42,348 nucleotides of DNA from Candidatus Woesearchaeota archaeon (GCA_964622145.1 CAZUOK010000001.1:1-42348); one strand, 5' to 3'; shown: positions 4,286 to 36,449, counted from the stretch's first letter. Notes: generated from the letters alone by a model not told the origin. Translations and numbers: made by a program.

Positions 4286-4470
4286 GAGGACAACTTATAG
4301 ACCTCCTTGAGATCCCTAAAGAAAAGAAAAAGAAGGAAAAGAGAAAGAAAGAGAAGAAAAAAGAGAAAGGAGTTTCAGTTCTCAATGTAATAAAGGAAAG
4401 TAGGAAGGTGCAATTCTTCATAGCCGTTGAGGTTCTTTTGACAATCATTCTATTCTACTTCTTCTTCTAA
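4282..4470 (+). CDS. Doubtful small ORF: Lys/Glu-rich segment plus C-terminal hydrophobic helix
   Basis: 62 codons with a TTG start overlapping the stop of 3854..4285. The KEKKKKEKRKKEKKKEK segment is just the translation of a 55-nt polypurine tract. The C-terminal FFIAVEVLLTIILFYFFF is TM-like. The 3' end overlaps the convergent gene 4445..5893 by 26 nt. Confidence 0.25.
   Translation: MRGQLIDLLEIPKEKKKKEKRKKEKKKEKGVSVLNVIKESRKVQFFIAVEVLLTIILFYFFF
4318..4372. repeat. 55-nt uninterrupted polypurine (A/G only) low-complexity tract
   Basis: Read directly: aaagaaaagaaaaagaaggaaaagagaaagaaagagaagaaaaaagagaaaggag. It lies between convergent genes. Confidence 0.9.
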
Positions 4471-26700: not shown

Positions 26701-29700
26701 GAAACTTACAGAGAGGTCGTTGACCTGGTATGTCAGGTGAAGGATTACGACACCGGAAGTCCGATAAGTGATTATGTTGTAGAATTCTACAACTCCACAA
26801 GCTATTTGGGATCAAACAAGACGGATTCAAATGGATATGCTAGGCTTAGAGTTGATCTCTCAAGCTACACGCCAGGATACAACACATTCTACTGCAAGAT
26901 TGTAAAAGATGATGAGAAATATTATGATCCCGCGGTATCTTCTGTTGGAAAGGATGTTCTTATAAAGGGAAAACTCAATGTGACAATAGTAAATCCTGAG
27001 AATGGAAGCTCTCTTGAAAGAGGGGAGACGTACTGGCTAAACTCAACAACATATGATGAATTTGGCAACAAGGTAACACCTGATTCATCATATTGGTTTG
27101 AGGGGCAAACGGAGATAGGATCCGGAGAGAACATCACATGGACTGTTCCATCGGATCATCCCCTCGGTCCAACAGTTATAAAAGTAAACGTTACAAAACA
27201 ATACTACGATCCCGCTGAGGACAACATAACAGTGTACATCTACGGTCATTCCTCAGTTGTGTGGGTATCACCAGAAGATGGGAGCTATCCATCAGGAAGC
27301 ATCCTGGAATTGATATGTTATGTAAACGACACAGATAGAAATTCTGGGATATCTGGATATCCCGTAAGCTTCTACTACAATGGAACCCTCATAGGGACAT
27401 CTAATACAAACTCAACAGGTTACGCTGTAATATCATGGGATACTTCAGGATTGGATGGAACGTACAATGTAAGTTGTGAAATTGGAAACTACAGTTATTA
27501 TATAGCAAAGAAAACATCAGATTCCACAATGATTGAGGTATACCTTGACACAACACCACCAAACGTCACGATAGTATCTCCAGAGAACAAGAGCTACAAC
27601 ATAAATACAATACCTCTGAATTACACCGTACAAGACGAACACTTGGATTCCTGTTGGTACGAACTTGATGGGACGAATTACTCACTTCCAAATTGTGAGA
27701 ACACAACGCTTACAAACTTACAGGAAGGAAGTCATTATGTAAGGGTCTATGCGAACGATACTGCTGGGAATGTTGGATATTCCGAAGTTTGGTTTACTGT
27801 TGACCTTACAAGTCCCGTAATAACCATAATATCTCCCGAAAACAGAACGTATGGTGAAACAGGAATTTGGATGAATATAACACTAAATGAGGCTGGAAGT
27901 GTGTGTATGTACTCTATAGATGGTGGACAAAACCAAACAATGAACAAGCTTAACGATACTTACTTCTACAGGTTCGCATCTGTTGGAGAGGGAACTCACA
28001 AGGTCAAATTCTTCTGTAACGATACCGCAGGGAACTGGGGGAGTGCCCAAGAATTCTTCACAGTAGATCTAACGGCCCCCACAGTAACACTCTACGAACC
28101 CGAAAACAATAGTGTTCTAGATCAAGGCAATGTAACCTTCAAATGCTATGCAGAAGACAATCTAAAACTCATTAACGTTACTCTATACACAAACAAGTCT
28201 GGATCTTTCTCTCCAGAGCTAACAAACTCGAGCGGGATAAATGGAAATTATACATTCAAACTAACAATGTCAGAAGGATATTATATCTGGAACTGCAAAG
28301 CTTGCGATGATATCAGATGCTCATTTTACTCAGAAAATTGGAGCTTCTATGTGGACTTGAATGCTCCCACTGTTACAGTAGTATCACCGGAAAACAAGAG
28401 TTACAATACGAATACAATACAACTAAATTATAGTGCAAGTGACTTAACCTTGGATTCCTGTTGGTACGAACTTGATGGGACGAATTACTCACTTCCAAAT
28501 TGTGAGAACACAACGCTTACAAACCTTGCGGAGGGATCCCATCATCTAATCGTTTATGCGAATGACAGTTTGGGTAGAGTAGGATATGATGAGGTTTGGT
28601 TTAGAGTTGATTTGACACCTCCAAGCCTTGTTGTTGTCTCTCCAGAGAACAACACAGAGTATGGGACTCCAAACGTCCCACTAGAGTATTCCGTCTCCGA
28701 TAACATAGAGGTGGATACTTGTTGGTACGTCCTTGATGGCGGTCAGCCAACAGTATTGCTAAACTGCCAGAACACAACGCTATCTCTTGACAACGGTCCA
28801 CACAATATAACTGTGTACGTAAACGACACTGCCGGAAACACGAACCAGAGCTTTGTACAATTCACAGTAAACTCAACAGCCCCATACGTAAAGATCCTAC
28901 ATCCTGTTGAGGGGAACTACTACAACAACCAAACCATATGGTTGAACTATACAGTACAGGATACGGATCTTGATTCCTGTTGGTACAGCATAGACGGTGG
29001 AGACAATGTTAGCATTCCAAACTGTCAAAACATAACCATAACGGTCTCCGATGGCTCACACAATGTGAAGGTATATGCAAACGATAGTCTTAATCAGATT
29101 GGATGGGATTCTGTGAACTTCTTCGTTGACACTGTCCCCCCAAGCCTTGTGTTGATATCTCCGGAAAACAAGAGTTATAGTGAGAATACGATATGGATAA
29201 ATTACACCGTGAACGATACAAATCTTGATTACTGTGTTTACGAGCTGGATGGCTCGAACACAACAGTATCTGATTGTAGTAATGTAAGTCTGGAGTTGTC
29301 AGAGGGAAGCCACTACGTAAGGGTGTTTGCATTCGATAAAGCAGGGAACTACAACGTAACCTCAAAGGTCTGGTTCACAGTTGACACAACACCACCAAAC
29401 GTCACGATAGTATCTCCAGAGAACAAGACGTACACTGTGAACGATATCCCACTAAACTACACGGTATCTGATAACTTCGAGATATCCATGTGCTGGTATG
29501 TCCTGGACTCCCAGGAGGAGGTCTATCTACAAGGCTGTCAGAACACAACATTAACGAATGTTCCTGATGGGAGTCATAGGATAAGGGTCTATGCGAATGA
29601 CTCTGCTGGGAATGTTGGATACTCTGAGGTTTGGTTTACTGTTGACACAAGGGGTCCGAACATATATTTCGTCCCACCAACCCCAGGAGATAACCAAGCT

Positions 29701-32700
29701 ATAGATTACAATTGGACTTACATAAACATAACAACGGATGAGGATGCTAGCATCGCAATACTGGAATTCGATTTCAACAACGGTACGGTTTTGAACTTTA
29801 CCATGAATCAGAACAATCCAAGGAATTGGTGGTACAATGTTACGGATCTCCAGGATGGGACGTACTATTATAGAGTCCATGCGAACGATACCTTCGGCAA
29901 CTGGAATACAACAGCATGGAGAACTGTCAGGATCTCTGTTGGGGCTCCAGCAATAAACATAATATCTCCAGAGAACAAGACATACAAGGATTCTAACTAC
30001 ATCCAGCTGAACGTTACTGTGAACAAAGAGGTTTCTGCTTGGTGGTATTCAATAAACAACGGTAGGAATATCACCTTCACTCCAAACATATCCATAGCCG
30101 CAAGGATTGGATCAAATGTTGTAAGGGTCTATGCGAACGACTCTGCTGGGAATGTTGGATACTCTGAGGTTTGGTTTACTGTTGACACAACCTTCTGGGA
30201 GGACAAGTTCGATCACTACAGTGGTCTTGAAATCTGGGAAAATATAACAATAGAAAATGGGAGTGCAAAGATAAGATTCTGTTATCCAGTATTTGAGCCT
30301 GATTGCTGGAAATATAGGGTAAGAATAAATGTATCAAATCCAGACACCCAAGACCACACAGATGTCCAGCTGAATCTTACTGTGGATACACAATCCCTTA
30401 TATCTGAAGGGAAGATGAATGGGAACTGTTCTGACATAAGGTTCACTTACTACAATCAGACCAGTGGGGAAGAGTACGAAATACCTTACTACATAGAATC
30501 GGGATGTAACACAACAAGCACGATAATCTGGGTAAAGGTTCCCTTCGTCCCCGCGGGAGGCAGTTCCATTATATACATGTACTACGGAAACCCTGGAGCT
30601 CAAGGAAGGTCAAATATCTCAGAGGTATTCAATTATTACAACAATATCGGACAGTGTAATGGCTCGGTGGCTGGGGGAAGCTGTTCAGTAATATTTGATG
30701 CCCCAGCTGGGGAAGTATTCTACGAGGCAAATCTCACTATGAGGATGGCTGGAGACTTCGGATATGGAGGATCATTCTCATCAGATGCTGTTTGTGATGA
30801 GAATTATGAGAGGGCAAATCTTATTGTTGACGGATCGGTAATAGGTTGTTATTCCACAGGCATTGATGGTTGTACACTGAACGAGCCTCCGGGGATGCCA
30901 GTAAGCATAGATGTCAGGAACAAGGGATCCGTAAATGTTACAGGAGATTCCACGGATGTTGTAAATCTTGATCCAAACAATTGTGGATTCTACTATAAGT
31001 TCGAGTTTGAAATAAGTGGATACACGAGGAAGAATGCTACCCTAGAGTACTCTGTTGGAACTGAAGAAGTTGCAATAAGGAATGCAAAGATTAGGAGCAT
31101 AGCAATAAAACCAAGGAAGGTTGCAAGATGGTTGAAGTTTTATGGTGTACACAGCATACCAACGGGGACAGGAATTGAGTACAGGATCCTTGACAGCAAC
31201 AACAACACCCTCCTTGTCTGCAATTCTGAGACAGCACAGACTGGTTGTGATCTCTCAGGTATTAATGCAAAAGAAATAAAATTAGAAGCAGTATTGACAA
31301 CAAACTCAGAGGCTACTCCAGAACTCATGTACTGGAATGTATCCTGGACACCAAACTCAAGTGTTGCGATAAACGTCATAAATGAGACCTCTGGAACCAT
31401 ATCGAACGCTCTTATAAGAATTCTAAGAAATGGAACAGTATTGGCTGAAGGTTATGGAAGTGTTGTTGTAGATGTTGAGATATACGAAAACTACACAGTA
31501 GAAACAATTACAGGAACATCTTATGGAGATCTCCTGCTAAGACTCTTTGAGCTCAATGTTACAAAGGATACAATAGAAATAAAGGAACAAATTGTTGAGA
31601 ACTACACAGGAAACCTCCCACAAAACATCTGGAAGGTCACTCCAGTTGTTGCTCTGAACGACACAGACTTGAATTACTCCAAGGCGACGCTTGTGATACC
31701 GAAGGGAGATGTCCAAAGCATTGATTATATATTACACTGTACGGACTGGAACTACACCTCAGCAACATGTAACAACTGGGTTACATCAGATCCAAACAGT
31801 TACGAGGGATTTGGTGAAAACTCAACACACTTCTGGTTCAACGTGACAGGATTCCAGGCATACGCTGGAGGGACTGTAGGATATGATGTACAAGTGAATG
31901 AAATAACATTTAACAAAACAAAGCCTGTTGAAAATGAAACCGTGCTTGTAACAGCAAATGTGAGTAATGAGGGAAGTTCTGATCTCACAAATGTTACCAT
32001 AAGGCTTGAGATATATCTATGGAATGAAACTTCAGGAAGCTGGATACTGGATGAGAGCTATGAGAAGAACGTCTCAATACCCGTAGGAAACTACACACTC
32101 GTAAACTTTACTTGGACGGCAAAGATAGGTACCTACAATTTCACAGTAATTGCAGATCCCTACGATCAGATTGATGAGGTAAACGAGAGCAACAATGCAA
32201 ACTGGAGCGAGCTAAATGTTTCCGCATGGACAATATACTATGGACACGTGAATGGTTGGATAGTTATAGGAGGAAACAACGGAGAAAACTTTACGGTTTG
32301 GATACCTTATATGATAGAGGGAAATCTTTACTTTGCAGATCAAGACTCAAGCTTTGAATTTGAGAATCTCATGCCATTAAATGGAACAAACGATCTTGAA
32401 GAGCTGGATGAAGCGCTTAACATGAGCATATACAAAGATTCTGTATCAAACGTTTATGATAAGGATGGGGATGGTGTACCAGACCACACGGATTGTTTCA
32501 GCATAGGTAACAGGCTCCTATGCGATGTGCCAGTAGTAAATTCAACCGAAGAAAACAACGGAAACTTTGTTACAGGGATACTTTGGGATTCAGGAGATGG
32601 AGGAACAGAGTACAATGGAACACAAGATGTTGTTTTTATAACGAAGGTAAACTATAACAAAACAGGAAGTTTTGGAAGATACGACTACGAGGTAAGAATA

Positions 32701-32766
32701 CCCGCATTGTTGAGGGATCTCAAGGGAACTGTAGACAAGATCGTAATATACGTGGAGATCAAGTAA
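11785..32766 (+). CDS. Giant (6,993-codon) multidomain cell-surface glycoprotein/adhesin-like protein with DUF2341, LamG, Ig-like and CARDB modules
   Basis: One uninterrupted ORF of 20,982 nt. AAGGAG lies 5 nt upstream of the ATG at 11785. An alternative ATG at 11851 gives a classical signal peptide. There is no C-terminal TM. NxS/T sequons are frequent throughout the ORF. Recognisable modules are listed as separate features below. Confidence 0.95.
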   Translation: MKNVFKHNCERYLKKDEIWGCLMEIWKIIPVAFMIFLLLPINIAALNLTNSTNKTASSRKFYEIFFENPERQCKGSVAIYGRVLENGKGYTGPIEISVNGTLYQVYSENGRFKMPIELETGRYEIIGSIGGYSSRTFIEVVNCGEVRLYYNSSCEQVTFWGYAKINGENYTGFGRLIVNDSEIQVEFLNGNMIPYSTTLLPGRYKVSLEVLGIRDTKIIIVQLCKPTLVVNNYTICAQFDKPFIVVIGNNTYDVKGKFCRELPPGRYNVTVRWDEGSISSEVFLPRIDIKMRKVYSPRESILFKVFSDIYPVCYQIPEIGISKCTNHTTIRIGKLEEGNYTLVIKVGDVTLKRYFRVFRKVIRKIFGEHEFIIEGNVSVEKVGEKYVLKGSGFVSLNLTSNPFIISYAWERAGKKYKPLNLSFEINGTKEIILPRRSRFDVGVVKKGSIAEVIAEHRKMFLKVIGGTFDKVFVVDPESIPEKPREFPNKLLKVYIRTNESKVRLYLSKKYRYPEVWKFNPKRFEWRKIGYSIEGDYIVVTLEDGGPFDEDGEKNGVIVDDIGITTSWWNESWKWRRIYNITSSKNQNITGFPAYIIVNTSKLISEGKMRGDCGDVRFTFWNRTSNSEEEIPYLFVGPCNSSHSLIWFRLPVLYDNSTSTTVFMYFGNPNATDNSDPQAVFPGLRAYWAFEEGSGNVTKDYSGNNFDGVLTDVAGGDPPLWRNTSSCVVGYCIESDDIGDAVNLSYLAVNGLDNVTFEAWIKTTDNRWGLISGANSGQDNEYLIYLETTPELRLYIKGSYDGVPPGSLTDGNWHHLVVVRNSDGTAEFYLDGSLLGTVSGLRTGTLTIDPNGLWLLQEQDSVGGSWDTTQVFIGLVDEVRIYNRSLSQDDIQKRVTNYTKTLVLEEYLAKLNVTIDYPSEGFVAIRYEPFWLNGTVHCVRGNCSNVSVYAQYIEPTGISGEVIEDTQQDFINYSEKVNVSIFDYLKLQPETGKSWWNESWRYRMKINISYTGQGNLTEYTVNVTIDTQSLITQGKMSPNCSDIVFTYYNQTTESEYEIPYWIESGCNTTNTVIWVRVPLIRNSTNETIYMYYGNPNAKIYYDPDDVFEYFVNFTKLGVQSAYGSGQDITPNNWEIVNDTILHLWGNNWKGVYYGPIKIEGDGSQILELYMNGTDTAEIYGVGFDVDLDNVNDARGSFYKFAGSQAWGLTPDQSYTNFGNWQRVYAILDDFSGQYLYFIFSNDDDADSNGNVWYKNVRVRKYATPEPTATVIGEEVLSIRPSGYYISKVIDLGSQDVRFGNIYWIAKVPQNTSLKVYTRSSSDGVAWSVWYEEINNTDVNAPDARYIQYKVEMTSQDPNKTPIFDKIVIEYTYTAPKFKDMKSSGTPFTTTNPYDCGVLDQTNNVCYPSFQVTPTEKGNFTLRLLANSTDTNIEPAESQWVNITVYERTYITDFKIQPSVQYKGGSVTISVRLLDASSNPIPNQNITFTDETDGTTIGSVLTDSNGYAVIQYNIPRNASLGYHTIRADYPGNSSLFYYSSWSTEQLKVSSSPQFWEIGTNDTYIGTGERVKIFANVTDEVGLDTVLVFITYPNGTEVNRTMTYNKASGYYEYVTEKLWEKGNYSFYIWANNTDGIENKSWTENFYLKIVGRLDVSTEKEKYKNFEILHLSNMNREWDMPGYAYRRWLSIYSNQTEWGTAVLRVDTKSLISEGKMNPDCSDIKFAKITTIEEIKVHIDNPYGVYRSDFVFPIEITDKRFLGKVDPAGRDIRIFTYKTDQPYSQEPDVPFWVESITSSRARIWIRHNLPINGLDLYIYYGKPGAESKSNYTAVFKEVVGEAGIVYTNDSWVNFSYLNSTGDTVFVFSSINTYYGSDEAFTRITKVNSSGFHVLIQESVALDQSHAYEKIGWIGFRKGAWIVCGKVIYVGNDSIDSNYKTVTVPYSFQDPVWVSQIQTFYETDPAHTRMNNPGSNSINIKIEETNTADTPHTYENVAYLVTEQFVCESGNFKIATGKKYHRQSSDVSATAGWTYYDLPNFPTTPVVVAKIMTERGGDNVHERIKDVTTDGFNYAMEEESGYDGPHIEEWNGYIAVTPGPIYGAKLEDTWPTTTIVEGPNVIAKTIEEIPHYLKSNCNQNDTEILVNLKQVSEGENRVYMYYGNPYDKEIENTGEDAINVFTYPSQYCSYVVLGIGGSSMDIVSYSHNNIISIGGTTITLNKGEYTTVSVSNGDEICSTGPISTGTQSTGDGAPAVPKTWAGKTFVVAVTRYNPVYFDIYALENATIRVYNSTGTGWTLVEEFSLSEGEYIQKSYPGGDSRVTTIEVSYLINSTGNILVFYRGKSDDYMPLTPANTELYLNPTQYLVIAAIYDNTNVNIYFSDGSSTTVTLNAGQGWVGGAYGSDGNANSVRIVSDKPIFAYQQADSDGTETTPGVSPKYMDRIFFFPQDAEYFVATTKTNKTTYCALYDTNGTLVNEWTVTASYPYPGKIGYGTGQDGTINIRKGYKLVCNESVIVIYEESSNDAETILYGPSAHAKIINVTYNDLGIEEDYYVNIENNGNETIRGYIYAIIQRFEDGQWVNVPPAIINDRASENLRVIGPGESLNLTYLWEYYGAWNTSSNPNGRYRVYVRFEDEKGNVITDWYGNPLEDYGYFEIIPADLSIINLTHKAMYEKDLEEYETNDTIDWINLTVTSLENTGIDTRVYLTFIDESGKYVGFGPNSEERTCGTIEENNTCSVSYGPVTIPENTGNLVVRFKVNLTAQNSGGAIFDTRGINFRYAVPLDVEEISGNNLINYPVMLILNVSDLINKGKVRSDLADLRVLDDKKKEVPRLILDYNETHKIIFFPTNLSANERKTYYLVYGNSSLSQPSYPDVYMFEYLSGYDQWKTISDSRQNLIIIAYFNNTKFKVEGGINVNGTLNAGEFYKVELPTNSQYSPLKYIIKTTKPVTVIIGSTELSRPNGATYSLDYLSRPYGRYFLTWGMDGSTSGNLTIFVTENDTVISVKNMSSGNYLIQNQVYNFGDVVHLSTSPHVFEINSSKPVLVVISQDDAFTSRDIGYRIPSFNGTWDGTYFKFYLTYAGGFYIVNPNDHPINYTVSGCITGSGTVGPKSSVLITGGTAGSLCEVWTTERALLFSEIYADVQYYITSLDGATTGKEFVYRVEDPYQGGNVVIGIHVLFDGTDVQDGCSGVYWTNLNKGWHYYRNAKSSGECRIIASKPIVVLLMVSEQEPSYTVSVPEWHMDWKEKPIIRVYKEISTRIFVHDIPSTFSSTPPERLYQNGPPVYYNFSMKNLWRENITNLAIRINCPNLPGLTCECVDNPGHPYCNVGNLTPNQEITVSFKITATEDTPTGNYIVNATVSYLNPLGNNKTWREVEPQTLEIRTYGIMEITVYSYPENVTRGSNATFKAYANNTGDQTAPEAWLAYSVYPSGWSIVEGSRNVTATNVSPGQIFWNNVTFYVSQSSSLGAQQVKLESGSSLDQKDFKVVTIYVYANTTLNIWLNDTDASRGEYVEVFAKLMYDNGTPVKGQKIEFYDETDNRFLGSSITNSQGIASVIYYLNESVSLGTHTINASYPGNSTLYLNPSENRTTLEVGLKPTIHWIEIVPSIVGYGKNVTIRANVTDDKGVSNVTAEIISPDGEKETVVLQNVYSTIYEREYSPKWLNGTYNVTVIAEDTSGSITKAFSQFQVEIESEILVETEKQSYLPTENVRLKKNTIFPLKYKVEIKIRSNESVNITEYQIMITFNSSKLISEGKMRDDCGDLRFSWLNKSSGEEVEIPYFLDYGCGEGETVVWVKVPLVYANNVTTIYMYYGNPAVTSDSSEFDVFTFEKENATTFWTVSSESVGQNLDIQAFLNNTSVIWEGSSQKIQNGTSYQLSSPSSQTSTLSHDKPIFGAFEGDTTEALHPISWAGKKFAYYVYRGTNEWHICAPFGDAKVQIYDGTTLLATYNIQKGNCIVANNDVTDGSVVIIESNESILVQHVDTTNNYDSRILYPVSTRLYGVPSERFEIAAIEDGTTVNIYCSDGYTNTLTLDRGQGWDYAIGGSEGTAPACVIISNKPVGANSLADSDGTETTTFLPLEELDRYYVFPQPVQYVAVAAPFDETTCTLYNPDGTVYDSQTAYVSGNAPGKIYFGSTTDGTNIQAGSYMICNKPVFAYYEYATTNDETQLFGPKANRKYSPRIYVESFGNETLAVSQVINYKRIFEGYIIAEVEKKIGESWVRKSVLVNDTTTGTRREFNLSLFDLSKVIPAWNPEGETGEFRMKIYVTDPEGNILNTTDGKLIGYAYFNVSQPPLKLNVSEIRVYETPYGEHGGGTLVDKGINKTFILESGKVYRFEIDVDVLSDSQTWNITEANVTFENLNQSWIIDVQNDVWYLNQTDTAERLGGLFTNGILKWNTSENDGTADNGTKVTFYFILNLTGASEEERGVLFRIETPTTIVKDFDTLKIIVPDTTPPNPVIYGLNTTEIFRGESVLAYAQWNEEIKNATIEYNSTTKFLNNYTIPGPYTNNWTNYTIETTSLWLLGRHYVRIYASDLSDNWNKTPAMYFKVYGLAYVSSISTNNSNPLVGDTVKITCLILDDTNDQGIENYNVSFWVNNSYIGSNLTNSSGYAEITYQFTSPGSYEIKCNITEDLDRYYKVDNRNEKSTTVFVRETEPPKWWEVVYPSLAHKGDTVNLSVRWKDNFELDYAILSTNESGTMENVSYMKLSGKDAWANFSYQIPTTISPGYIIWKQYANDTSNNWNVTDEYLIEVWGWAEVSNAVVNPSSIQQGGTTTMYCKIVDANQTTVGIEGYNVSFYLGNTLLGYNLTNSSGWAEYTFTVNTAGTYTVKCIIGDYPEKKYNASSKNEGSDTLTVSATEDIYPPQIVDNNYGLNATKIYRYDAILVYGQWNETIDTAWVEYNKTSSLITETVPGPYTNNWTNHTIVTDDAWTPGVHVVKLYANDTSGNINDTLPYLSFEMWGRSAVYWVSPNETYREVVDLVCQVKDYDTGSPISDYVVEFYNSTSYLGSNKTDSNGYARLRVDLSSYTPGYNTFYCKIVKDDEKYYDPAVSSVGKDVLIKGKLNVTIVNPENGSSLERGETYWLNSTTYDEFGNKVTPDSSYWFEGQTEIGSGENITWTVPSDHPLGPTVIKVNVTKQYYDPAEDNITVYIYGHSSVVWVSPEDGSYPSGSILELICYVNDTDRNSGISGYPVSFYYNGTLIGTSNTNSTGYAVISWDTSGLDGTYNVSCEIGNYSYYIAKKTSDSTMIEVYLDTTPPNVTIVSPENKSYNINTIPLNYTVQDEHLDSCWYELDGTNYSLPNCENTTLTNLQEGSHYVRVYANDTAGNVGYSEVWFTVDLTSPVITIISPENRTYGETGIWMNITLNEAGSVCMYSIDGGQNQTMNKLNDTYFYRFASVGEGTHKVKFFCNDTAGNWGSAQEFFTVDLTAPTVTLYEPENNSVLDQGNVTFKCYAEDNLKLINVTLYTNKSGSFSPELTNSSGINGNYTFKLTMSEGYYIWNCKACDDIRCSFYSENWSFYVDLNAPTVTVVSPENKSYNTNTIQLNYSASDLTLDSCWYELDGTNYSLPNCENTTLTNLAEGSHHLIVYANDSLGRVGYDEVWFRVDLTPPSLVVVSPENNTEYGTPNVPLEYSVSDNIEVDTCWYVLDGGQPTVLLNCQNTTLSLDNGPHNITVYVNDTAGNTNQSFVQFTVNSTAPYVKILHPVEGNYYNNQTIWLNYTVQDTDLDSCWYSIDGGDNVSIPNCQNITITVSDGSHNVKVYANDSLNQIGWDSVNFFVDTVPPSLVLISPENKSYSENTIWINYTVNDTNLDYCVYELDGSNTTVSDCSNVSLELSEGSHYVRVFAFDKAGNYNVTSKVWFTVDTTPPNVTIVSPENKTYTVNDIPLNYTVSDNFEISMCWYVLDSQEEVYLQGCQNTTLTNVPDGSHRIRVYANDSAGNVGYSEVWFTVDTRGPNIYFVPPTPGDNQAIDYNWTYINITTDEDASIAILEFDFNNGTVLNFTMNQNNPRNWWYNVTDLQDGTYYYRVHANDTFGNWNTTAWRTVRISVGAPAINIISPENKTYKDSNYIQLNVTVNKEVSAWWYSINNGRNITFTPNISIAARIGSNVVRVYANDSAGNVGYSEVWFTVDTTFWEDKFDHYSGLEIWENITIENGSAKIRFCYPVFEPDCWKYRVRINVSNPDTQDHTDVQLNLTVDTQSLISEGKMNGNCSDIRFTYYNQTSGEEYEIPYYIESGCNTTSTIIWVKVPFVPAGGSSIIYMYYGNPGAQGRSNISEVFNYYNNIGQCNGSVAGGSCSVIFDAPAGEVFYEANLTMRMAGDFGYGGSFSSDAVCDENYERANLIVDGSVIGCYSTGIDGCTLNEPPGMPVSIDVRNKGSVNVTGDSTDVVNLDPNNCGFYYKFEFEISGYTRKNATLEYSVGTEEVAIRNAKIRSIAIKPRKVARWLKFYGVHSIPTGTGIEYRILDSNNNTLLVCNSETAQTGCDLSGINAKEIKLEAVLTTNSEATPELMYWNVSWTPNSSVAINVINETSGTISNALIRILRNGTVLAEGYGSVVVDVEIYENYTVETITGTSYGDLLLRLFELNVTKDTIEIKEQIVENYTGNLPQNIWKVTPVVALNDTDLNYSKATLVIPKGDVQSIDYILHCTDWNYTSATCNNWVTSDPNSYEGFGENSTHFWFNVTGFQAYAGGTVGYDVQVNEITFNKTKPVENETVLVTANVSNEGSSDLTNVTIRLEIYLWNETSGSWILDESYEKNVSIPVGNYTLVNFTWTAKIGTYNFTVIADPYDQIDEVNESNNANWSELNVSAWTIYYGHVNGWIVIGGNNGENFTVWIPYMIEGNLYFADQDSSFEFENLMPLNGTNDLEELDEALNMSIYKDSVSNVYDKDGDGVPDHTDCFSIGNRLLCDVPVVNSTEENNGNFVTGILWDSGDGGTEYNGTQDVVFITKVNYNKTGSFGRYDYEVRIPALLRDLKGTVDKIVIYVEIK
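11795..11802 (-). promoter_or_regulatory. TATA-like box (minus strand TTTAAATA) for the 10123..11769 operon
   Basis: Centred about 29 nt upstream of the ATG at 11769 on the minus strand. Confidence 0.35.
11817..11825 (+). promoter_or_regulatory. TATA-like box (ATATTTAAA) that would serve an ATG at 11851 of the giant gene
   Basis: Centred about 30 nt upstream of the in-frame ATG at 11851. That ATG starts a textbook signal or anchor sequence (MEIWKIIPVAFMIFLLLPINIAA). Confidence 0.35.
12010..12858 (+). repeat. Four small beta-sandwich repeats with [PT]GRY signature (carboxypeptidase-regulatory-like, tentative)
   Basis: Recurring ends are ETGRYEIIGSIGG, LPGRYKVSLEVLG, PPGRYNVTVRWDEG and EEGNYTLVIKVGD, spaced about 60-75 aa apart. 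Confidence 0.5.
13483..13824 (+). repeat. DUF2341-like module 1
   Basis: WWNESWKWRRIYNI...LISEGKMRGDCGDVRFTF...EIPYLFVG...LIWFRLPVL...VFMYFGNPNA...AVF. Confidence 0.8.
13831..14460 (+). other. LamG / concanavalin-A-like jelly-roll domain (Laminin_G_3 type)
   Basis: LRAYWAFEEGSGNVTKDYSGNNFDGVL...VTFEAWIKT...GNWHHLVVVRNSDGTAEFYLDGSLLGT...FIGLVDEVRIYNRSLSQDDI. This is the full canonical motif series of LamG_3 domains. Confidence 0.85.
14764..15102 (+). repeat. DUF2341-like module 2
   Basis: WWNESWRYRMKINI...LITQGKMSPNCSDIVFTY...EIPYWIESGCN...VIWVRVPLI...IYMYYGNPNA...DVF. Confidence 0.8.
16825..17274 (+). repeat. DUF2341-like module 3 (atypical, with internal partial duplication)
   Basis: YRRWLSIYS...LISEGKMNPDCSDIKFA, then a second N-half (FPIEITDKRFLGKVDPAGRDIRIFTY), then VPFWVESI...RIWIRHNLP...LYIYYGKPGA...AVF. 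Confidence 0.65.
17275..18141 (+). repeat. Three-fold internal repeat domain with R..[GF]...E[ES]...H..E signature (family not identified)
   Basis: The three units are SDEAFTRITKVNSSGFHVLIQESVALDQSHAYEKIGWIGF, TDPAHTRMNNPGSNSINIKIEETNTADTPHTYENVAYLV and GGDNVHERIKDVTTDGFNYAMEEESGYDGPHIEEWNGYIAV. Confidence 0.55.
18142..18309 (+). repeat. DUF2341-like module 4 (C-terminal half only)
   Basis: EIPHYLKSNCN...EILVNLKQV...VYMYYGNPYD...NVF. The N-terminal W..W/ISEGKM half is missing. Confidence 0.6.
18310..19370 (+). other. ~350-aa beta-rich module, copy a (follows DUF2341-4)
   Basis: Internally repetitive strands of the type x-T-x-V-x-[IV]-Y...L-x-x-G-[EQ]...S-x-KP-[IV]-[FV]. Contains WAGKTFVVAV, NVNIYFSDGSSTTVTLNAGQGW, SDKPIFAYQQADSDGTETT and LVCNESVIVIYEE. 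Resembles IgGFc-binding-N-terminal-like beta-solenoid or sandwich modules (unverified). Confidence 0.5.
20116..20406 (+). repeat. DUF2341-like module 5 (divergent)
   Basis: NYPVMLILNVSDLINKGKVRSDLADLRVLDD...EVPRLILDY...KIIFFPTNL...YYLVYGNSS...VYMF. Confidence 0.6.
20407..21465 (+). other. ~350-aa beta-rich module, copy b (follows DUF2341-5)
   Basis: Same strand grammar as copy a: NTKFKVEGG...LNAGEFYKV...TTKPVTVIIG; NDTVISVKN...NFGDVVHL...SSKPVLVVISQ; ECRIIASKPIVVLLMV. Confidence 0.45.
22939..23259 (+). repeat. DUF2341-like module 6
   Basis: KYKVEIKIRS...LISEGKMRDDCGDLRFSW...EIPYFLDYGCG...VVWVKVPLV...IYMYYGNPAV...DVF. Confidence 0.8.
23260..24300 (+). other. ~350-aa beta-rich module, copy c (follows DUF2341-6)
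   Basis: Collinear with copy a: WAGKKFAYYV, TVNIYCSDGYTNTLTLDRGQGW, SNKPVGANSLADSDGTETT, MICNKPVFAYYEY, QLFGPKA (compare ILYGPSA in copy a). Confidence 0.55.
25132..27543 (+). repeat. Four tandem ~200-aa di-domain (A-B) Ig-like units
   Basis: A-type stretches: GPYTNNWTNYTIETTSLWLLGRHYVRIYASDLSDNWN and GPYTNNWTNHTIVTDDAWTPGVHVVKLYANDTSGNIN. B-type stretches: GIENYNVSFWVNNSYIGSNLTNSSGYAEITY, GIEGYNVSFYLGNTLLGYNLTNSSGWAEYTF, ISDYVVEFYNSTSYLGSNKTDSNGYARLRV and ISGYPVSFYYNGTLIGTSNTNSTGYAVISW. Confidence 0.75.
27544..30183 (+). repeat. Ten tandem ~85-95-aa Ig-like repeats (SbsA/Big/HYR-like G-S-H-x-[IV]-x-V-Y-A-N-D-x-A-G-N signature)
   Basis: Unit consensus: D-[TL]-T-P-P-x-V-x-[IV]-[IV]-SPENK-[ST]-Y...[IL]-x-LNYTV-x-D..LD-x-CWY-x-LDG.N....NC.NTTL..L.EGSH.[VI]RVYAND[ST]AGNVGYSEVWFTV. 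Units 3 and 9 are divergent. Perfect DNA repeats of 76, 48 and 52 nt link non-adjacent units. Confidence 0.85.
30307..30630 (+). repeat. DUF2341-like module 7
   Basis: CWKYRVRINVS...LISEGKMNGNCSDIRFTY...EIPYYIESGCN...IIWVKVPFV...IYMYYGNPGA...EVF. Confidence 0.8.
31882..32220 (+). other. CARDB domain
   Basis: YDVQVNEITFNKTKPVENETVLVTANVSNEGSSDLTNVTIRLEIY...GNYTLVNFTWTAKIGTYNFTVIADPYDQIDEVNESNNA. The canonical CARDB ending E-x-NE-x-NN is present. Confidence 0.8.
32221..32763 (+). other. C-terminal S-module of the giant protein (homologous to small secreted proteins S1/S2); contains a D-x-D-G-D-G-x-x-D Ca-binding-like motif
   Basis: AWTIYYGHVNGWIVIGGNNGENFTVW aligns with HWAGVFGNATGKLILGDASGYKLYEW (S1) and KWVGFWGEVSGQIVLGDSSGNIFYQW (S2). 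The end DYEVRIPALL...KIVIYVEIK aligns with NYQVILPEN...TYYVWIELV and DYQVLAGVN...TFYFYLELP. DKDGDGVPDHTD sits at 32458-32493. Confidence 0.6.
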
Positions 32767-32768
32767 TG

Positions 32769-32776
32769 TTTATAAA
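32769..32776 (+). promoter_or_regulatory. TATA box (TTTATAAA) for the MoxR-DUF58-vWA cassette
   Basis: Starts 3 nt after the giant-gene TAA (32764-32766) and is centred about 28-29 nt upstream of the ATG at 32801. A T6 run at 32781-32786 could also act as the giant-gene terminator. Confidence 0.45.
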
Positions 32777-32800
32777 TTGATTTTTTCAAAAAGAAGAGAT

Positions 32801-33811
32801 ATGAGTGAATTTGAGCCTGAAAAAGAGTTAGAGATTTCAAAGGAAAAGATTAGAGAATTTAGAGACAAGATACATACTCTTAAAGAAGAAATACACAAAA
32901 CAATAGTTGGTCAAGAAGAAGTTGTAAAACAGGTATTGGTCTGTCTTATATGTGACATGCACGCCCTACTCGAGGGAGTTCCAGGCCTTGCGAAGTCCCT
33001 TCTAGCAGAAACACTTTCGAGATGTATTGAGGGGGCAACATTCAAAAGGATACAGTTCGTCCCAGACATGCTACCATCAGACATTATAGGGGTTACAATC
33101 TTCGATCCATCAACAGGGACTTTTAAGACTGTTAAAGGACCAATATTTGCGAATTTTATAATCGCTGATGAGGTCAACAGAGCCCCTCCAAAGACACAAA
33201 GCGCTCTCTTGGAAGCAATGCAGGAGAGGAGGGTGTACATATATGGGGAGGAATATCCCCTTGAAAGACCATTCCTCGTCCTAGCAACCCAGAACCCGCT
33301 AGAACAACAGGGGGTCTATCCCCTATCAGAGGCCTTTGTGGATAGATTCTTCATGAAGATATTGGTCGATTACCCAAGTTGGGATGAGGAGATGGAAATA
33401 ATAGATAGAAACACAATGGTCCAATATGACGTTCTTGAGAAGGTCAAAAAGGTCATGACAAAAGAAGATATAGTAGAGATGCAGAGGGCTGTTAGGAAGA
33501 TCTATATAGCTAGACCGATAAAGGAATACATATTAAGGATTGTCCAGACAACGAGGGGGAAAGGTGAAAAAATAAGGTATCTGAAATATATAAGGTACGG
33601 TGCCTCACCTAGGGGTTCCATATCTTTAGCACTTGCGGCAAGGGCTATTGCAATGATGAAGGGAAGAAACTTCGTGATACCAGACGACATAAAAGAAATA
33701 ATATACCCTGTCCTCAGGCACAGGATCATACTGAACTTTGAAGGAAGGGCTGCTGGGATATCTACAGATGAAATAATAACGGAGATACTTGAAAATGTTG
33801 AGGTTCCTTGA
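32801..33811 (+). CDS. MoxR-family AAA+ ATPase
   Basis: Walker A GVPGLAKS and Walker B/sensor block FIIADEVNRAPPKTQSALLEAMQERRV. Also present are PFLVLATQNPLEQQGVYPLSEAFVDRF and the C-terminal GASPRGSISL lid motif. All are hallmarks of MoxR (AAA_3). The start is taken at ATG 32801 rather than the track TTG at 32777, which would overlap the TATA box. Confidence 0.92.
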   Translation: MSEFEPEKELEISKEKIREFRDKIHTLKEEIHKTIVGQEEVVKQVLVCLICDMHALLEGVPGLAKSLLAETLSRCIEGATFKRIQFVPDMLPSDIIGVTIFDPSTGTFKTVKGPIFANFIIADEVNRAPPKTQSALLEAMQERRVYIYGEEYPLERPFLVLATQNPLEQQGVYPLSEAFVDRFFMKILVDYPSWDEEMEIIDRNTMVQYDVLEKVKKVMTKEDIVEMQRAVRKIYIARPIKEYILRIVQTTRGKGEKIRYLKYIRYGASPRGSISLALAARAIAMMKGRNFVIPDDIKEIIYPVLRHRIILNFEGRAAGISTDEIITEILENVEVP

Positions 33812-34724
33812 GCTGTTTAGGGGGAAACCAGAGATCCCAGTAAGGGTCCTTGAATTCAAAGAGCTTTGGAACAAGAGCATAGTTAATGTTTGGAAGCTGC
33901 TAGAGATACTTAGATTTCAGTTCATATACTACAGGGTAATAACTGGGAGAGGTTTGGAATTCGACAGATTGAGGGAATACACTCCAGAGGATGATGCAAA
34001 GTTCATAGACTGGAGGGCTTTCGCGAGGTGTAGGAAGCCTTACGTGAAGGTCTTCAAGGAGGAGAGGAGATTGGATATTGTATTCCTTGTGGATGTCTCA
34101 ACAACCATGGTCCTTGGGACAACAAGGTACACAAAGAATGAGTACGCATCAATACTTGCAACAACTCTGGCACTTGTTTCCCAGTCCCTTGGAGATAGGG
34201 TTTGTCTTGTCGCATTTTCGGATGAGATAAAGAAGTTTGTTGAGCCCGGAATATCCATTGACAACGTCCTCCAAATAGCAAAGGCCCTCTGCGATAGAGA
34301 AATATACGGTGGAGGAAAGAATTGGAGGATTGTGTCCCCGACGATACTTGAGACCTTTGGGCCAAACACCTTTGTCTTCATACTCTCCGACTTTATTGGG
34401 GAAAAGAGGGATTTATACGATCTTCTAATGAAATTCTCGAACAAATTTAAAGGAGTTGCTGGAATAATGATAAGAGATCCACTAGACTCTTACATACCGG
34501 AGGGAATAGGAAAGATTTATATCCAGGATCCAATGACTGGAGAAGTAATGCTTGTTGATATGGACAAGATTAGGGAAGAGTACAACAGGACTGTTGAGGA
34601 GGAGGAAAGAAAACTGAAAGAAGTATTTTTGTCTTATGGGAGCTTGTTTGCAAAGACTTTGACAAACAATTTTGACTTTCCAGGATTGATACTCTCCCTG
34701 TTTGGGGGAAGATTATGGAAGTGA
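33789..34724 (+). CDS. DUF58-family protein (vWA-like fold, MoxR partner)
   Basis: GLEFDRLREYTPEDDAKFIDWRAFARCRKPYVKVFKEERRLDIVFLVDVSTTM is the signature DUF58 block (G-x-EF-x-x-R-x-Y-x-x-GD-D-x-R-x-IDW...). Overlaps the moxR 3' end by 23 nt, which suggests translational coupling. Confidence 0.88.
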   Translation: MKMLRFLELFRGKPEIPVRVLEFKELWNKSIVNVWKLLEILRFQFIYYRVITGRGLEFDRLREYTPEDDAKFIDWRAFARCRKPYVKVFKEERRLDIVFLVDVSTTMVLGTTRYTKNEYASILATTLALVSQSLGDRVCLVAFSDEIKKFVEPGISIDNVLQIAKALCDREIYGGGKNWRIVSPTILETFGPNTFVFILSDFIGEKRDLYDLLMKFSNKFKGVAGIMIRDPLDSYIPEGIGKIYIQDPMTGEVMLVDMDKIREEYNRTVEEEERKLKEVFLSYGSLFAKTLTNNFDFPGLILSLFGGRLWK

Positions 34725-35707
34725 ACCTTGGGAGGATAGCAATTGAAATTTCCCTTCCACTTAGAAGCCTCTCCACACTTCTCATACTAATAACATTTAC
34801 CATCCTTTCTTATCTTTTCATGACAAAGGTTAGGAGGAGGAGGGTCCTAAAGTTTGCGAACGTATACACCTTGAGAACCATCCACGGATTCAAATCCATA
34901 AGTCCAAGCCCTCTAATACTGATATCAAAAATCCTTGTTGTATCCCTCCTTTTCCTTGTAGCGACAGAGTCCATAAGGATAATGACAAGAAGTCCAATAT
35001 CCGATACGGATATCTGCTTCGCAATAGATACCTCCCCAACCATGCTCCTTCCAGATTACAAACCAAATAGAATAGAATTCGTCAAGAGCATTATATTAAA
35101 GTGGTTGGACGAAATCCCCCCAGGAGTTCAGATATGCATAGTAAAGTTCTCCAACAAACCTTACCCTGTAACCACTCTGACAAATGATAGGATAAAGATA
35201 GAGAGGAGTGTGAGTGAGATAACCGTTGACCTTAACTCCAGCGGTACCGCTATAGGAGATGCCATCTTTGAGGCAACATCAATACTTTCAACCTCAAAAA
35301 AGAAGAGGTATTTGATACTTATAACAGACGGTAAGAACAACATCGGGAGGAACCTCTCGGAGGCGGTTAGGGTTGCAAAGGAAGAAAACGTTAATGTTTA
35401 CGTCGTTGGGATAGGACCAACAAACGAGACAATAAGGATGTTCAATGAGCTAAAAGAGATTGCTGAAAGGATGAATATAAGCTTTACATTCCCTGAAGTT
35501 GATGAGGAAGGGCTTAGAAAGGTTTCGGAAGAGACGGGGGGAGAATTCTTTTATGTTGTTGATGAGAACAAGTTTAAGGAAGCTATGAACAAGATCATTG
35601 TCAGAGAAAGCATGGTCTCTTTAAACACAGACTATTACATCCTTTTGTTCATTTCCGCACTTCTAGGTCTGGAATTGATACTTTTCTCTGTGCTTGGGGC
35701 TGTATAA
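34715..35707 (+). CDS. vWA-domain membrane protein (BatA-like)
   Basis: N-terminal TM followed by RRRRVLKFANVYTL (BatA-like N-terminus). MIDAS-type D-x-S-x-T (FAIDTSPTM), SGTAIGDAI and LITDGKNN motifs are present, with a C-terminal TM (YYILLFISALLGLELILFSVLGAV). Overlaps the DUF58 gene by 10 nt. Confidence 0.88.
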   Translation: MEVNLGRIAIEISLPLRSLSTLLILITFTILSYLFMTKVRRRRVLKFANVYTLRTIHGFKSISPSPLILISKILVVSLLFLVATESIRIMTRSPISDTDICFAIDTSPTMLLPDYKPNRIEFVKSIILKWLDEIPPGVQICIVKFSNKPYPVTTLTNDRIKIERSVSEITVDLNSSGTAIGDAIFEATSILSTSKKKRYLILITDGKNNIGRNLSEAVRVAKEENVNVYVVGIGPTNETIRMFNELKEIAERMNISFTFPEVDEEGLRKVSEETGGEFFYVVDENKFKEAMNKIIVRESMVSLNTDYYILLFISALLGLELILFSVLGAV

Positions 35708-35728: not shown

Positions 35729-35736
35729 TTTATATA
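35729..35736 (+). promoter_or_regulatory. TATA box (TTTATATA) for the S2 gene
   Basis: Centred about 27-28 nt upstream of the ATG at 35760. Identical octamer and spacing as upstream of S1. Confidence 0.5.
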
Positions 35737-35759
35737 AAGGTAGTTGCTTCTGGAATGAC

Positions 35760-36449
35760 ATGATTAAGAAACTGCTTGTACTCTTTGCAGTGTTGCTGTT
35801 ACCAATGGCATTCTCGGTACCAGCAAACGCAACAGTATCTGCAGGTACATCAGAGAGATACCCAGAAGCAACAACTCCAGGAACTGTCACAGCGCAAGCT
35901 GGAAATGTAACACAAGTAAACGTGTCCAGTGTACAAGTAACAGGAAAATGGGTAGGTTTCTGGGGAGAGGTAAGTGGACAAATAGTGCTCGGAGATTCTA
36001 GTGGGAACATATTCTATCAATGGACAATATCCGATCCTACAGGGGCTGTTGTGTATGTGTGTAATGACACAGTTTCGGACTGGTCAACCCTACAGCCCCT
36101 GTATGCAAACAGCAGTGTTCTTCCGGACTTCCTGATAACAGGAACAGATTCCTTCAACAACACATTCAAATATCAAGAAACATTCACAAGTCCTAGCATG
36201 ACGATAAACAACGTAAATTACACACTTACATGGCAGAATGGTGCTGAAGGTTCAGACTTCAAGACATATGCATTGTACGCAAATGAAAGCGCAACAACTG
36301 GTAAGATAATACTTGTCTGGGCAGGCCTTGTAAACGCAAACAAGCCATCATTCAAGGGAGGGACTATAACAGCTGATTACCAGGTATTGGCTGGAGTAAA
36401 CACAGAGGGAGGACAACAAACATTCTACTTCTACCTAGAGCTACCGTGA
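35760..36449 (+). CDS. Small secreted protein S2 (S-module family; paralog of 1324..2040)
   Basis: 229 aa from ATG 35760. The track ORF starts at 35694, but that extension covers the TATA box and lacks signal-peptide character. Signal peptide is MIKKLLVLFAVLLLPMAFSVPANA. Collinear with S1 (see that feature). Confidence 0.85.
   Translation: MIKKLLVLFAVLLLPMAFSVPANATVSAGTSERYPEATTPGTVTAQAGNVTQVNVSSVQVTGKWVGFWGEVSGQIVLGDSSGNIFYQWTISDPTGAVVYVCNDTVSDWSTLQPLYANSSVLPDFLITGTDSFNNTFKYQETFTSPSMTINNVNYTLTWQNGAEGSDFKTYALYANESATTGKIILVWAGLVNANKPSFKGGTITADYQVLAGVNTEGGQQTFYFYLELP

Follow-up and report, generated by a model that had tools for sequence, protein, structure and literature searches.

A MoxR–DUF58–vWA gene triad in a surface gene module of DPANN archaea and its possible link to S-domain proteins and a giant adhesin-like protein

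Gene cassettes of the Bat type, which encode a MoxR-type AAA+ ATPase, a DUF58 protein and a von Willebrand factor A (vWA) protein, are widespread in bacteria and archaea, and their knock-outs give vague stress phenotypes. In the characterised MoxR systems, the vWA partner serves as an adaptor between the AAA+ ring and the client. To our knowledge, hardly any client of the MoxR–DUF58–vWA cassettes has been described. A cassette of this kind lies at positions 32,767 to 35,707 of a 42,348-nt stretch of DNA from a Candidatus Woesearchaeota archaeon (GCA_964622145.1 CAZUOK010000001.1:1-42348), which was analysed at its full length and is called the window below. It follows directly on the gene for a giant secreted adhesin-like protein. 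The original prediction for this locus had suggested a dedicated role of the triad in the folding, assembly or anchoring of surface proteins. We propose that a Bat-type MoxR system has been adapted here to assemble or anchor surface proteins with a domain that we name the S domain, the giant adhesin among them; we consider the chances of this reading to be about even.

The closest described systems are the Bat loci, the core of which (MoxR-DUF58-BatA/BatB; BB0173-BB0176 in Borrelia, BatA/B in Leptospira) agrees with the window in its three protein types and in their order. A Bat-like envelope or stress role has been proposed for Bacteroides, Leptospira, Borrelia and Francisella, and Bat function is regarded as unresolved (PMC3557215). 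The Borrelia protein BB0173 has transmembrane (TM) helices at residues 7-25, 57-77 and 310-328 around the vWA domain, which faces the periplasm according to in vitro insertion and localisation experiments (PMC5700661). The same triad as in the window is formed by Mycobacterium tuberculosis MoxR1 (Rv1479), Rv1480 (DUF58) and Rv1481 (membrane vWA). MoxR1 is reported to be needed for the export of the cell-wall hydrolase RipA (PMC4810496). NorQ/NorD is an example of a MoxR ATPase with a vWA adaptor (PMC9976466). A cluster of Bifidobacterium, PFNA, has the gene order pkb2 – fn3 – aaa-atp (MoxR) – duf58 – tgm (PMC8430577). For archaea, Makarova, Galperin and Koonin predicted in 2015 a 'novel secretion system' around arCOG01314/DUF4350 with Ig-like and S-layer-like proteins (PMC5898192). 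According to a second paper of the Koonin group, DUF2341 proteins are the predicted PilY1-like tip adhesins in archaeal type IV pili loci, and MoxR/GvpN and vWA pairs lie beside some of these loci (PMC4858521). The triad itself is ordinary, as it is the core of the Bat loci and of the mycobacterial MoxR1 operon.

For comparison, 40 DPANN loci around orthologues of the triad were collected, every open reading frame (ORF) in them was compared by BLAST with the window proteins, and the loci were merged to 14 lineages including the window. Individual loci are denoted by L numbers.

The triad proteins and the topology of the vWA protein

The triad and its promoter element are located as follows.

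32769..32776, plus strand: TATA box TTTATAAA of the MoxR operon, 3 nt past the stop codon TAA (32764-32766) of the giant gene
32801..33811, plus strand: MoxR-type AAA+ ATPase, 336 aa, start codon ATG 32801; the ORF opens at TTG 32777
33789..34724, plus strand: DUF58 protein, probable start codon ATG 33795
34715..35707, plus strand: BatA-like membrane vWA protein, TM segments at residues ~16-37, 64-87 and 306-328, vWA domain with the metal ion-dependent adhesion site (MIDAS) at ~99-270

The presence of the triad at this place, which the original prediction had recognised from motifs, was confirmed by Pfam scores above the cut-off for all three proteins. The MoxR protein matches AAA_3 with 187.1 bits (1.5e-55, cut-off 27) and AAA_lid_2 with 80.8 bits (6e-23, cut-off 22.7), and the PDB entry 2r44 is matched at an E value of 1e-91. 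The motifs GVPGLAKS (Walker A), ADEVNRA (Walker B), ATQNP and GASPRG (sensor) are kept across 17 orthologues. An exact-sequence database look-up of the window MoxR returned no record. In some lineages MoxR has a long N-terminal extension, so that the protein measures 571 aa (L052, 6978-8693) or 419 aa (L028, 7849-9108) against 336 aa in the window.

Two further matches of MoxR raise the question of whether the triad belongs to a conflict or defence system of the ternary bpMoxR type. These are a secondary Pfam match to bpMoxR with 52.8 bits and a weak PADLOC match to DolB (E 1.8e-5), apart from which the PADLOC scan was negative. This explanation is hardly credible. The AAA_3 score of 187 bits stands against 53 bits for bpMoxR, no beta-propeller or effector partner gene is present in the window, neither DUF58 and vWA nor the neighbouring S and W5 proteins have a PADLOC match, and the neighbours are glycosylated surface proteins.

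The DUF58 gene follows directly after MoxR in every DPANN locus compared. Its product matches the DUF58 family with 128 bits (3.8e-37, Pfam cut-off 23.4) and also contains a VWA_2 match (2.9e-06). The residues D102-x-S104-x-T106-M and S200-D201 are conserved and form a MIDAS-like motif typical of the vWA fold. No TM helix was found in the protein, which is predicted to be cytoplasmic. DUF58 is likely to be the adaptor of MoxR.

The product of the third gene matches VWA with 71.1 bits (1.8e-19, Pfam cut-off 23.8) and VWA_2 with 56 bits. Its MIDAS is complete, with D105, S107, T178 and D205 invariant in 19 orthologues and S or T at the fifth position. The closest solved structures to the vWA domain are the BatB-type entries 3ibs, 4jdu and 4rck; the mussel thread matrix protein, collagen VI and integrin I domains are also among the nearest solved vWA domains. 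The designation BatA-like, which had been given before, is supported by the three-TM layout and by the MIDAS, whereas models of the BatA type were matched only below their curated cut-offs. The NCBIfam model VWA_BatA_Lepto gave 70 bits against a cut-off of 380, and PRK13685, which we take to be the mycobacterial membrane vWA family, gave 72.7 bits (2.7e-20) against 432. The N-terminal BatA model of Pfam, PF07584, was not matched. As these cut-offs are lineage-specific, the protein is named BatA-like and not BatA.

Overlaps of 23 and 10 nt between the three genes had been predicted. The 10-nt overlap between DUF58 and vWA (34715-34724) is real and recurs identically in the gene calls of L023, L046, L048 and L050. 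The overlap between MoxR and DUF58 amounts to 23 nt only if translation starts at TTG 33789; from the more likely ATG 33795 it is 17 nt.

Hydropathy places two TM helices in the N-terminal part of the vWA protein and one at its C-terminus. Among the 19 orthologues, the loop between TM1 and TM2 (residues 38-63) has a mean of 8.6 K+R and 0.5 D+E, and the mean number of K+R is 0.9 in the N-tail and 1.1 after TM2. According to the positive-inside rule, the TM1-TM2 loop is thus cytoplasmic and the vWA domain lies outside. Few parts of the protein are as well conserved as this loop, in which R40, R43, F47, N49, T52, L53 and G58 are invariant. The frequency of N-glycosylation sequons (N-x-S/T) per Asn in the DPANN orthologues is 0.05 for MoxR, 0.07 for DUF58 and 0.23 for vWA, and 0.21-0.48 for the proteins C1, C2, C3, W3, C5 and S and for the giant, all of which are described below. 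Two of the vWA sequons occupy conserved positions (N174-x-S/T and N237-x-T239). Three independent lines, namely the loop charge, the sequon enrichment and the homologue BB0173, predict that the vWA/MIDAS domain faces outward, on the same membrane side as the giant and S. A cytoplasmic MIDAS had been named beforehand as the topology that would speak against a link to exported proteins; the K+R bias, the sequons and BB0173 all point to the other side.

The outward position also bears on another explanation, in which the giant (and S) would be handled before Sec by MoxR and DUF58 as a holdase or unfoldase in the cytoplasm, and the vWA protein would only dock this chaperone at the membrane. MoxR1 and RipA offer a precedent (PMC4810496), a protein of ~7,000 aa plausibly needs help to stay export-competent, and DUF58 keeps its MIDAS-like motif in the cytoplasm. 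The complete and invariant MIDAS of a membrane protein on the outside would remain unexplained, and so would the small proteins that are the tightest partners of the triad, such as S. We consider the holdase explanation very unlikely.

The S domain and the conserved gene neighbourhood

The triad of the window is bracketed by two segments that encode S domains, the tail of the giant at the 5′ side and the free S gene at the 3′ side.

11851..32766, plus strand: giant secreted adhesin-like protein; ORF from 11785, 6,993 aa
~31891-32199, plus strand: CARDB domain that precedes the S-like domain of the giant
32161..32763, plus strand: C-terminal S-like domain of the giant, residues ~6793-6993 (hhalign against the S family)
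35729..35738, plus strand: TATA box TTTATATAAA of gene S, 31 nt before ATG 35760
35760..36449, plus strand: S, secreted 229-aa protein, which defines the all-beta S domain without Pfam match
1324..2040, minus strand: W3, secreted paralogue of S (29% identity, E 4.5e-17), kept in L003, L046, L047 and L052

The gene S is the fourth co-oriented gene after MoxR, DUF58 and vWA. It lies directly 3′ of the vWA gene also in L005/L007 (two or three tandem copies), L023 and L028, and near the triad in L006 and L052 (three copies); it is further found in the fragments L031 and L033, short JGI contigs in which the vWA-S region is 88% and 100% identical to the window, respectively. One search returned 36 homologues of S, and the family comprises 1,226 clusters at 50% identity (E<=0.001) and reaches Woesearchaeota. 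The members examined have neither a Pfam match nor an annotation, so that a large unannotated family is now defined by the S domain. The AlphaFold2 (AF2) model of S has a mean predicted local distance difference test (pLDDT) value of 86. A Foldseek comparison of this model with the PDB gave no match at E<=0.001, and TM-scores did not exceed 0.21. S was also considered as a donor-strand pilin of the TasA/AbpA or Sulfolobus thread-like type, which found no support since no PDB match was obtained by Foldseek despite the good AF2 model. C2 and C3 were rejected as S-domain proteins (hhalign probabilities of 6% and 0.2%), despite a 35-residue motif likeness at the N-terminus of C2.

The exported protein of ~7,000 aa that had been predicted directly upstream of the triad was found as expected: the ORF 11785-32766 encodes 6,993 aa with a signal peptide and 292 N-x-S/T sequons. 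Its Pfam domains are five DUF2341, one LamG/pentaxin, many Big/PKD/CARDB and macroglobulin-like ones. Neither a C-terminal TM helix nor a known sorting signal was found in the giant, and a C-terminal docking domain would therefore make sense. An hhalign comparison of the S-family profile with the C-terminal domain of the giant gave a probability of 96.6% and an E value of 6.5e-10 over 171 columns. The alignment spans approximately the whole mature S and residues ~6793-6993 of the giant, and both share a W-x-G-(F/Y)-x-G...G-x-I-x-L core and a C-terminal Y-x-E-L/I ending. Since its tail is homologous to S, the giant is tied to the triad by more than position. A search with the C-terminal 294 residues of the giant retrieved about 40 proteins of 300-515 aa and fragments of giants, all with CARDB and the terminal domain. 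The AF2 model of this C-terminal region has a pLDDT of 91.8, and its structure matches in the PDB are limited to the CARDB half, with none for the last ~180 aa. The S-like domain of the giant contains many invariant or near-invariant Asp and Asn residues and, in the window copy, a DxDGDG-type motif at ~32400-32470 (DKDGDGVPDHTD), which hints at the binding of Ca2+.

The TATA box TTTATAAA is seen at 32769-32776, where the original prediction had placed a promoter of the triad's own 3 nt past the giant stop codon. The ATG 32801 of MoxR lies 32 nt from the start of this box, and in the orthologous loci L004, L032, L046 and L050 TTTTATTAA is found ~32 nt before the MoxR ATG. Because of this common TATA geometry, ATG 32801 is more likely to be the start of MoxR than TTG 32777, which had been assigned earlier. 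L004 keeps the promoter geometry without a giant gene upstream. As judged from sequence, the MoxR operon has its own conserved promoter; the triad is consequently regarded as a partner of the giant gene and not as a passenger in its operon. The mRNA of the MoxR operon is probably leaderless or near-leaderless. An oligo-T run, TTTTTT, is located between the TATA box and the ATG at 32782-32787 and could be an archaeal terminator of the giant transcript. In each of the giant, MoxR and S genes, a TATA-like, A/T-rich sequence of eight or ten nucleotides begins ~31-34 nt ahead of the ATG (11817-11853, 32769-32803 and 35729-35762), with no room for a Shine-Dalgarno sequence, which suggests leaderless transcripts as the rule in this organism. 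Following this rule, the start of the giant gene was moved to the likely ATG 11851, which is preceded by the TATA-like ATATTTAAAG at 11817-11826.

The vWA protein has close relatives (37-56% identity) solely in metagenome-assembled genomes (MAGs) and metagenome contigs of DPANN-type archaea, the records of which are labelled Aenigmatarchaeota, Nanoarchaeota, Undinarchaeota and Micrarchaeota. The next-best matches are bacterial BatA-type proteins with <=34% identity. A collinear giant orthologue, or a shorter protein with the same tail, lies <=10 kb from the triad in 8 of the 14 lineages, in three arrangements. The giant is directly upstream of MoxR in the window, L002, L003/L046, L032 and L050, and its last residue is aligned to window residue 6993. 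It is upstream with a P-type ATPase gene inserted on the other strand in L023/L024, and downstream after a convergent ParA-like gene in L025/L026. In L038, a 1,373-aa DUF2341/CARDB protein with the same C-terminal domain is encoded downstream after ParA. The giant orthologues are collinear with 49-57% identity over 850-2,600 aligned residues, through residue 6993; this divergence is about that of vWA (50-54% identity) and greater than that of MoxR (~68%). The synteny of the MoxR cassette with DUF2341/LamG giants, the lack of which had been considered as a sign against a functional link, is thus present.

The remaining neighbours that recur beside the triad are encoded at the left side of the window.

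2186..3829, plus strand: W4, with signal peptide, extracellular alpha/beta and Ig-like region and C-terminal TM anchor; paralogue of C1 (E 3e-24)
3854..4285, plus strand: W5, with an N-terminal TM helix and a charged helical region, probably cytoplasmic
4445..6702, minus strand: C4/C5, split by a 1-nt frameshift in the window, a single gene elsewhere
6704..8446, minus strand: C3, secreted CARDB glycoprotein, with 39-54% identical orthologues adjoining the triad in 7 lineages
8447..10090, minus strand: C2, secreted, no known domain (Pfam and gene-order table)
10123..11769, minus strand: C1, paralogue of W4 with C-terminal TM anchor, divergent from the giant gene

S, W4, W5, a C gene or a giant-type gene is located beside the triad in 13 of the 14 lineages. 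W4 adjoins S or the triad in L003, L005, L006, L028, L046 and L052. A W5 homologue lies on the minus strand directly before MoxR, and thus divergent from it, in L006, L038 and L048, and positional analogues of W5 occur in L025, L028 and L052. The most constant partners of the triad are S, W4/C1, W5, C2, C3 and C4/5, not the giant. None of the housekeeping genes of the window (MBL, cupin, TYW3, MgtE-like, HAD, topoisomerase and others) recurs in any compared locus, so the conservation does not reflect general gene order. The order of the blocks is [W3 W4 W5 C5/4 C3 C2 C1] [giant triad S] in the window, [giant triad] [W3 W4 W5 C5 C3 C2] in L003/L046 and [C1 C2 C3 C5 x W5] [triad] [ParA] [giant] in L025, L038 and L048; in L052 the triad is inverted and lies between the C block and three copies of S with W4. 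A linkage that outlasts block swaps and inversions, down to 37% identity of vWA, argues for selection on proximity over inertia. The region ~1324-36449 of the window is accordingly described as a predicted lineage-specific surface gene module of ~12 genes in a DPANN clade labelled Aenigmatarchaeota, Nanoarchaeota and related groups.

The same comparison speaks to a simpler explanation, in which the triad is a generic Bat-like operon for envelope or stress homeostasis without a dedicated client, and its neighbourhood reflects the shared ancestry of closely related small genomes. The occurrence of the triad with other partners in many bacteria, its solitary position among housekeeping genes in L004 and the unsettled function of the Bat proteins (PMC3557215) are in line with it. 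Shared ancestry does not easily account for the fact that the housekeeping flanks vary between the loci and the module genes are kept, that the module blocks are swapped or inverted and still adjacent (window versus L046, L025 and L052), and that the linkage is kept as vWA identity falls to 37% (L006, L028). We judge the generic explanation unlikely.

Another possibility is that the triad serves the module of S, W4, W5, C2, C3 and C4/5 only, that the giant is a mere resident of the island and that its abutment on MoxR is an inherited accident. It fits this explanation that S, W4, W5 and the C genes are the constant neighbours (13 of 14 lineages, against 8 of 14 for the giant), that the MoxR promoter does not differ between loci that have a giant upstream and loci that do not, and that look-ups from the C-terminal domain of the giant gave no triad. 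It is opposed by the homology of the giant tail to S, since what recognises S could also recognise the giant, and by the proximity itself, which outlasts three arrangements including the insertion of a P-type ATPase gene (L023) and the move downstream after ParA (L025, L038). This explanation is a serious possibility, although we would sooner expect it to be wrong.

The proposal that the triad assembles or anchors S-domain proteins including the giant has several points against it. The adjacency of giant and triad recurs in three arrangements and is not universal. No giant is nearby in six lineages. Three of them, L005/7, L006 and L048, end at a contig edge within a few kb, and the other three, L004, L028 and L052, are informative. 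In L028 and L052 no giant lies within 10 kb, and in L004 the triad is located between EF-2 and Lhr helicase with no module gene nearby. Reciprocal look-ups from the C-terminal domain of the giant found the triad in none of three loci (L053, L054 and L055), in two of which the gene is cut by the contig end and the upstream side is unseen. L053 has a giant-type C-terminal-domain gene followed by ParA, and L054 encodes a stand-alone 457-aa protein with such a domain. L055, in which no triad was found within reach, belongs to the same MAG as L001, whose MoxR is among the closest sequences found. Because the lineages are related, fewer independent events underlie the 8 of 14 than the count suggests, and there are perhaps 2-3 independent arrangements. 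In the bacterial loci L008-L022 the same triad has different partners, e.g. BatB and second or very large vWA genes. A Woesearchaeota locus (L056) contains S and W4 as a pair with no triad within 10 kb, which indicates that S and W4 do not strictly need the triad nearby; they would be an older pair that the triad joined in the clade of the window. The W4 orthologues have only 0.05 sequons per Asn, as low as cytoplasmic proteins and unlike the other surface proteins of the module. The proposal is based on gene neighbourhood, topology prediction and homology, all of them genomic, from uncultured organisms.

The mechanism that we propose starts in the cytoplasm, where the MoxR ring would use DUF58 as adaptor, by analogy with CbbQ/CbbO, NorQ/NorD and RavA/ViaA. 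The MoxR-DUF58 pair would act on the conserved basic cytoplasmic loop of the membrane vWA protein, and the outward MIDAS would bind surface proteins, the best candidates being free S and the giant tail as carriers of the S domain. In this way, an N-glycosylated surface complex that serves contact with a host or substrate would be assembled, anchored or released under the control of ATP hydrolysis inside, and the complex may also take in the membrane-anchored W4/C1 and C4/5. The dedicated folding, assembly or anchoring role suggested in the original prediction gains support from the synteny, the outward MIDAS and the homology between giant tail and S; the role itself is still conjectural. A more specific version is tentative, and we rate it as rather unlikely: the S domain would be a sorting or anchoring module, the outward BatA-like MIDAS its receptor, and the receptor would be switched from inside by MoxR-DUF58. 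The system would then be an integrin-like 'inside-out' device, driven by ATP, for the attachment, loading or release of adhesins on the surface of the symbiont.

If this version is correct, a first client of the MoxR-DUF58-BatA triad would be defined. The giant adhesin is a concrete candidate for it, and the vWA ectodomain and the S domain form a specific pair to be tested. A conserved, energy-coupled module of this kind would be a candidate for part of the machinery by which DPANN archaea, which live attached to host cells, build and control their attachment surface.

Other genes of the window and of the related loci

The N-termini of S, W3 and the C proteins resemble Sec signal peptides. NCBIfam models, applied to all neighbours without assignment, gave nothing above noise. 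W4 and C1 were considered as members of arCOG01314/DUF4350 or as GldG proteins and rejected, with no Pfam match at E<=5 in eight family members and no PDB sequence match. In five related loci, C4 and C5 are parts of one ORF of 771-892 aa, the orthologues aligning to C4 and then to C5. The protein consists of a signal peptide, beta-helix-like repeats, a Pro-rich linker, an NPCBM_assoc/CARDB-like (Ig-like) domain and a C-terminal TM anchor, and it has a weak match to NosD. In the window, the junction of C4 (282 aa) and C5 (482 aa) is located on the minus strand at 5854-5893, where a 1-nt frameshift occurs near GAGAATGTACC. Possible explanations of this frameshift are an error in sequencing or assembly, a pseudogene and phase variation.

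A gene for a ParA/MinD-like ATPase (CbiA family) lies directly after vWA in convergent orientation in L006, L025-27, L035-38 and L048/49. Such a gene is also near the triad in L023 and L028 and directly after the giant-type C-terminal-domain genes in L038 and L053, and none is present in the window. The ParA/MinD-like ATPase may position the surface module. In one lineage, the vWA gene and W3 are separated by an inserted toxin-antitoxin pair of the HepT/MNT (Polbeta) type (L046 6379-7202, L047).

Downstream of S, and convergent with it, a small HExxH protein of the 'putative phage metallopeptidase' family (PF18894, 5.5e-26) is encoded on the minus strand at 36441-36797; the two genes overlap by 9 nt at their 3′ ends, and the HExxH gene is not conserved in the related loci. 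Two overlapping genes at 37892-38880 encode one MgtE-type TM domain each (162 and 170 aa, 31% identical to each other), and the pair looks like a split or heterodimeric channel. The 179-aa ORF preceding them has no Pfam match. BLASTP matches the ORF 41065-42003 on the minus strand to a Toprim/Topoisom_bac protein of 577 aa that is encoded in L055; the ORF is type IA topoisomerase-like and runs toward the end of the window.

Comparison with known systems

No description of this locus was found in the literature searched, which covered open-access papers and bioRxiv. What appears to be new here is the DPANN-specific module, the BatA-type three-TM vWA protein and DUF58 in that context, and the S domain after vWA and at the end of the giant. 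In both the Bat protein BB0173 and the window vWA protein, a MIDAS-bearing vWA domain follows two TM helices at the N-terminus and precedes a third one at the C-terminus; it lies beyond the cytoplasmic membrane in BB0173 (PMC5700661) and is predicted to do so in the window protein. Unlike the Bat hosts, the host of the window triad is an archaeon with a single membrane, and the triad has a giant adhesin and DPANN-specific glycoproteins as partners. The full Bat operon is not present, as genes for BatB, BatC, BatD or BatE (TPR, SH3) were not found in the window by Pfam.

CbbQ-CbbO, NorQ-NorD and RavA-ViaA are assumed to work by a common principle, in which a MoxR ring with a vWA/MIDAS partner grips an acidic residue of the client and remodels it. 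In these systems the ring, the adaptor and the client are in one compartment, whereas the MIDAS of the window vWA protein is predicted to lie across the membrane from the ATPase, which would require transmembrane coupling. Its putatively extracellular MIDAS domain is profile-similar to integrin I domains.

Similar to the archaeal system around arCOG01314, the window pairs a MoxR/COG0714 ATPase and a vWA protein with membrane-anchored, Ig-like surface proteins (PMC5898192). The layout of arCOG01314, with signal peptide, large extracellular alpha/beta domain and single C-terminal TM helix, is that of W4 and C1. The vWA protein of that system is a secreted Ig-vWA fusion, and the one of the window is of the three-TM BatA type. 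DUF58 is not listed for the arCOG01314 system, and neither a giant protein nor an S domain is described for it (PMC5898192). DUF1616-type proteins are absent from the window, and PF14258 (DUF4350) was not matched by W4, C1 or six orthologues at E<=5. Membership of the locus in the arCOG01314 system is not established, and the resemblance is architectural only.

The giant of the window has five DUF2341 domains, and proteins of archaeal type IV pili loci also carry this domain; the vWA protein of those loci is ArnB-like and that of the window BatA-like. A type IV pilus locus was rejected for the window, in which Pfam detected no pilins, class III signal peptides, PilB/TadC-type ATPases or prepilin peptidase.

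Like the window, the PFNA cluster, a conserved cluster with a supposed role in host contact, has the gene of a large secreted adhesive FN3 glycoprotein directly upstream of MoxR and DUF58 (PMC8430577). The third partner in PFNA is a membrane transglutaminase and not a vWA protein, a Ser/Thr kinase is included, and the surface proteins are unrelated. In the mycobacterial case, the MoxR1 client RipA is a substrate of twin-arginine translocation (TAT) that is handled in the cytoplasm of a bacterial host, and neither a giant adhesin nor an S domain is involved. Taken together, the precedents of MoxR and vWA with archaeal surface proteins (PMC5898192), the PFNA cluster and MoxR1 with RipA (PMC4810496) support the idea that the triad of the window acts on surface clients.

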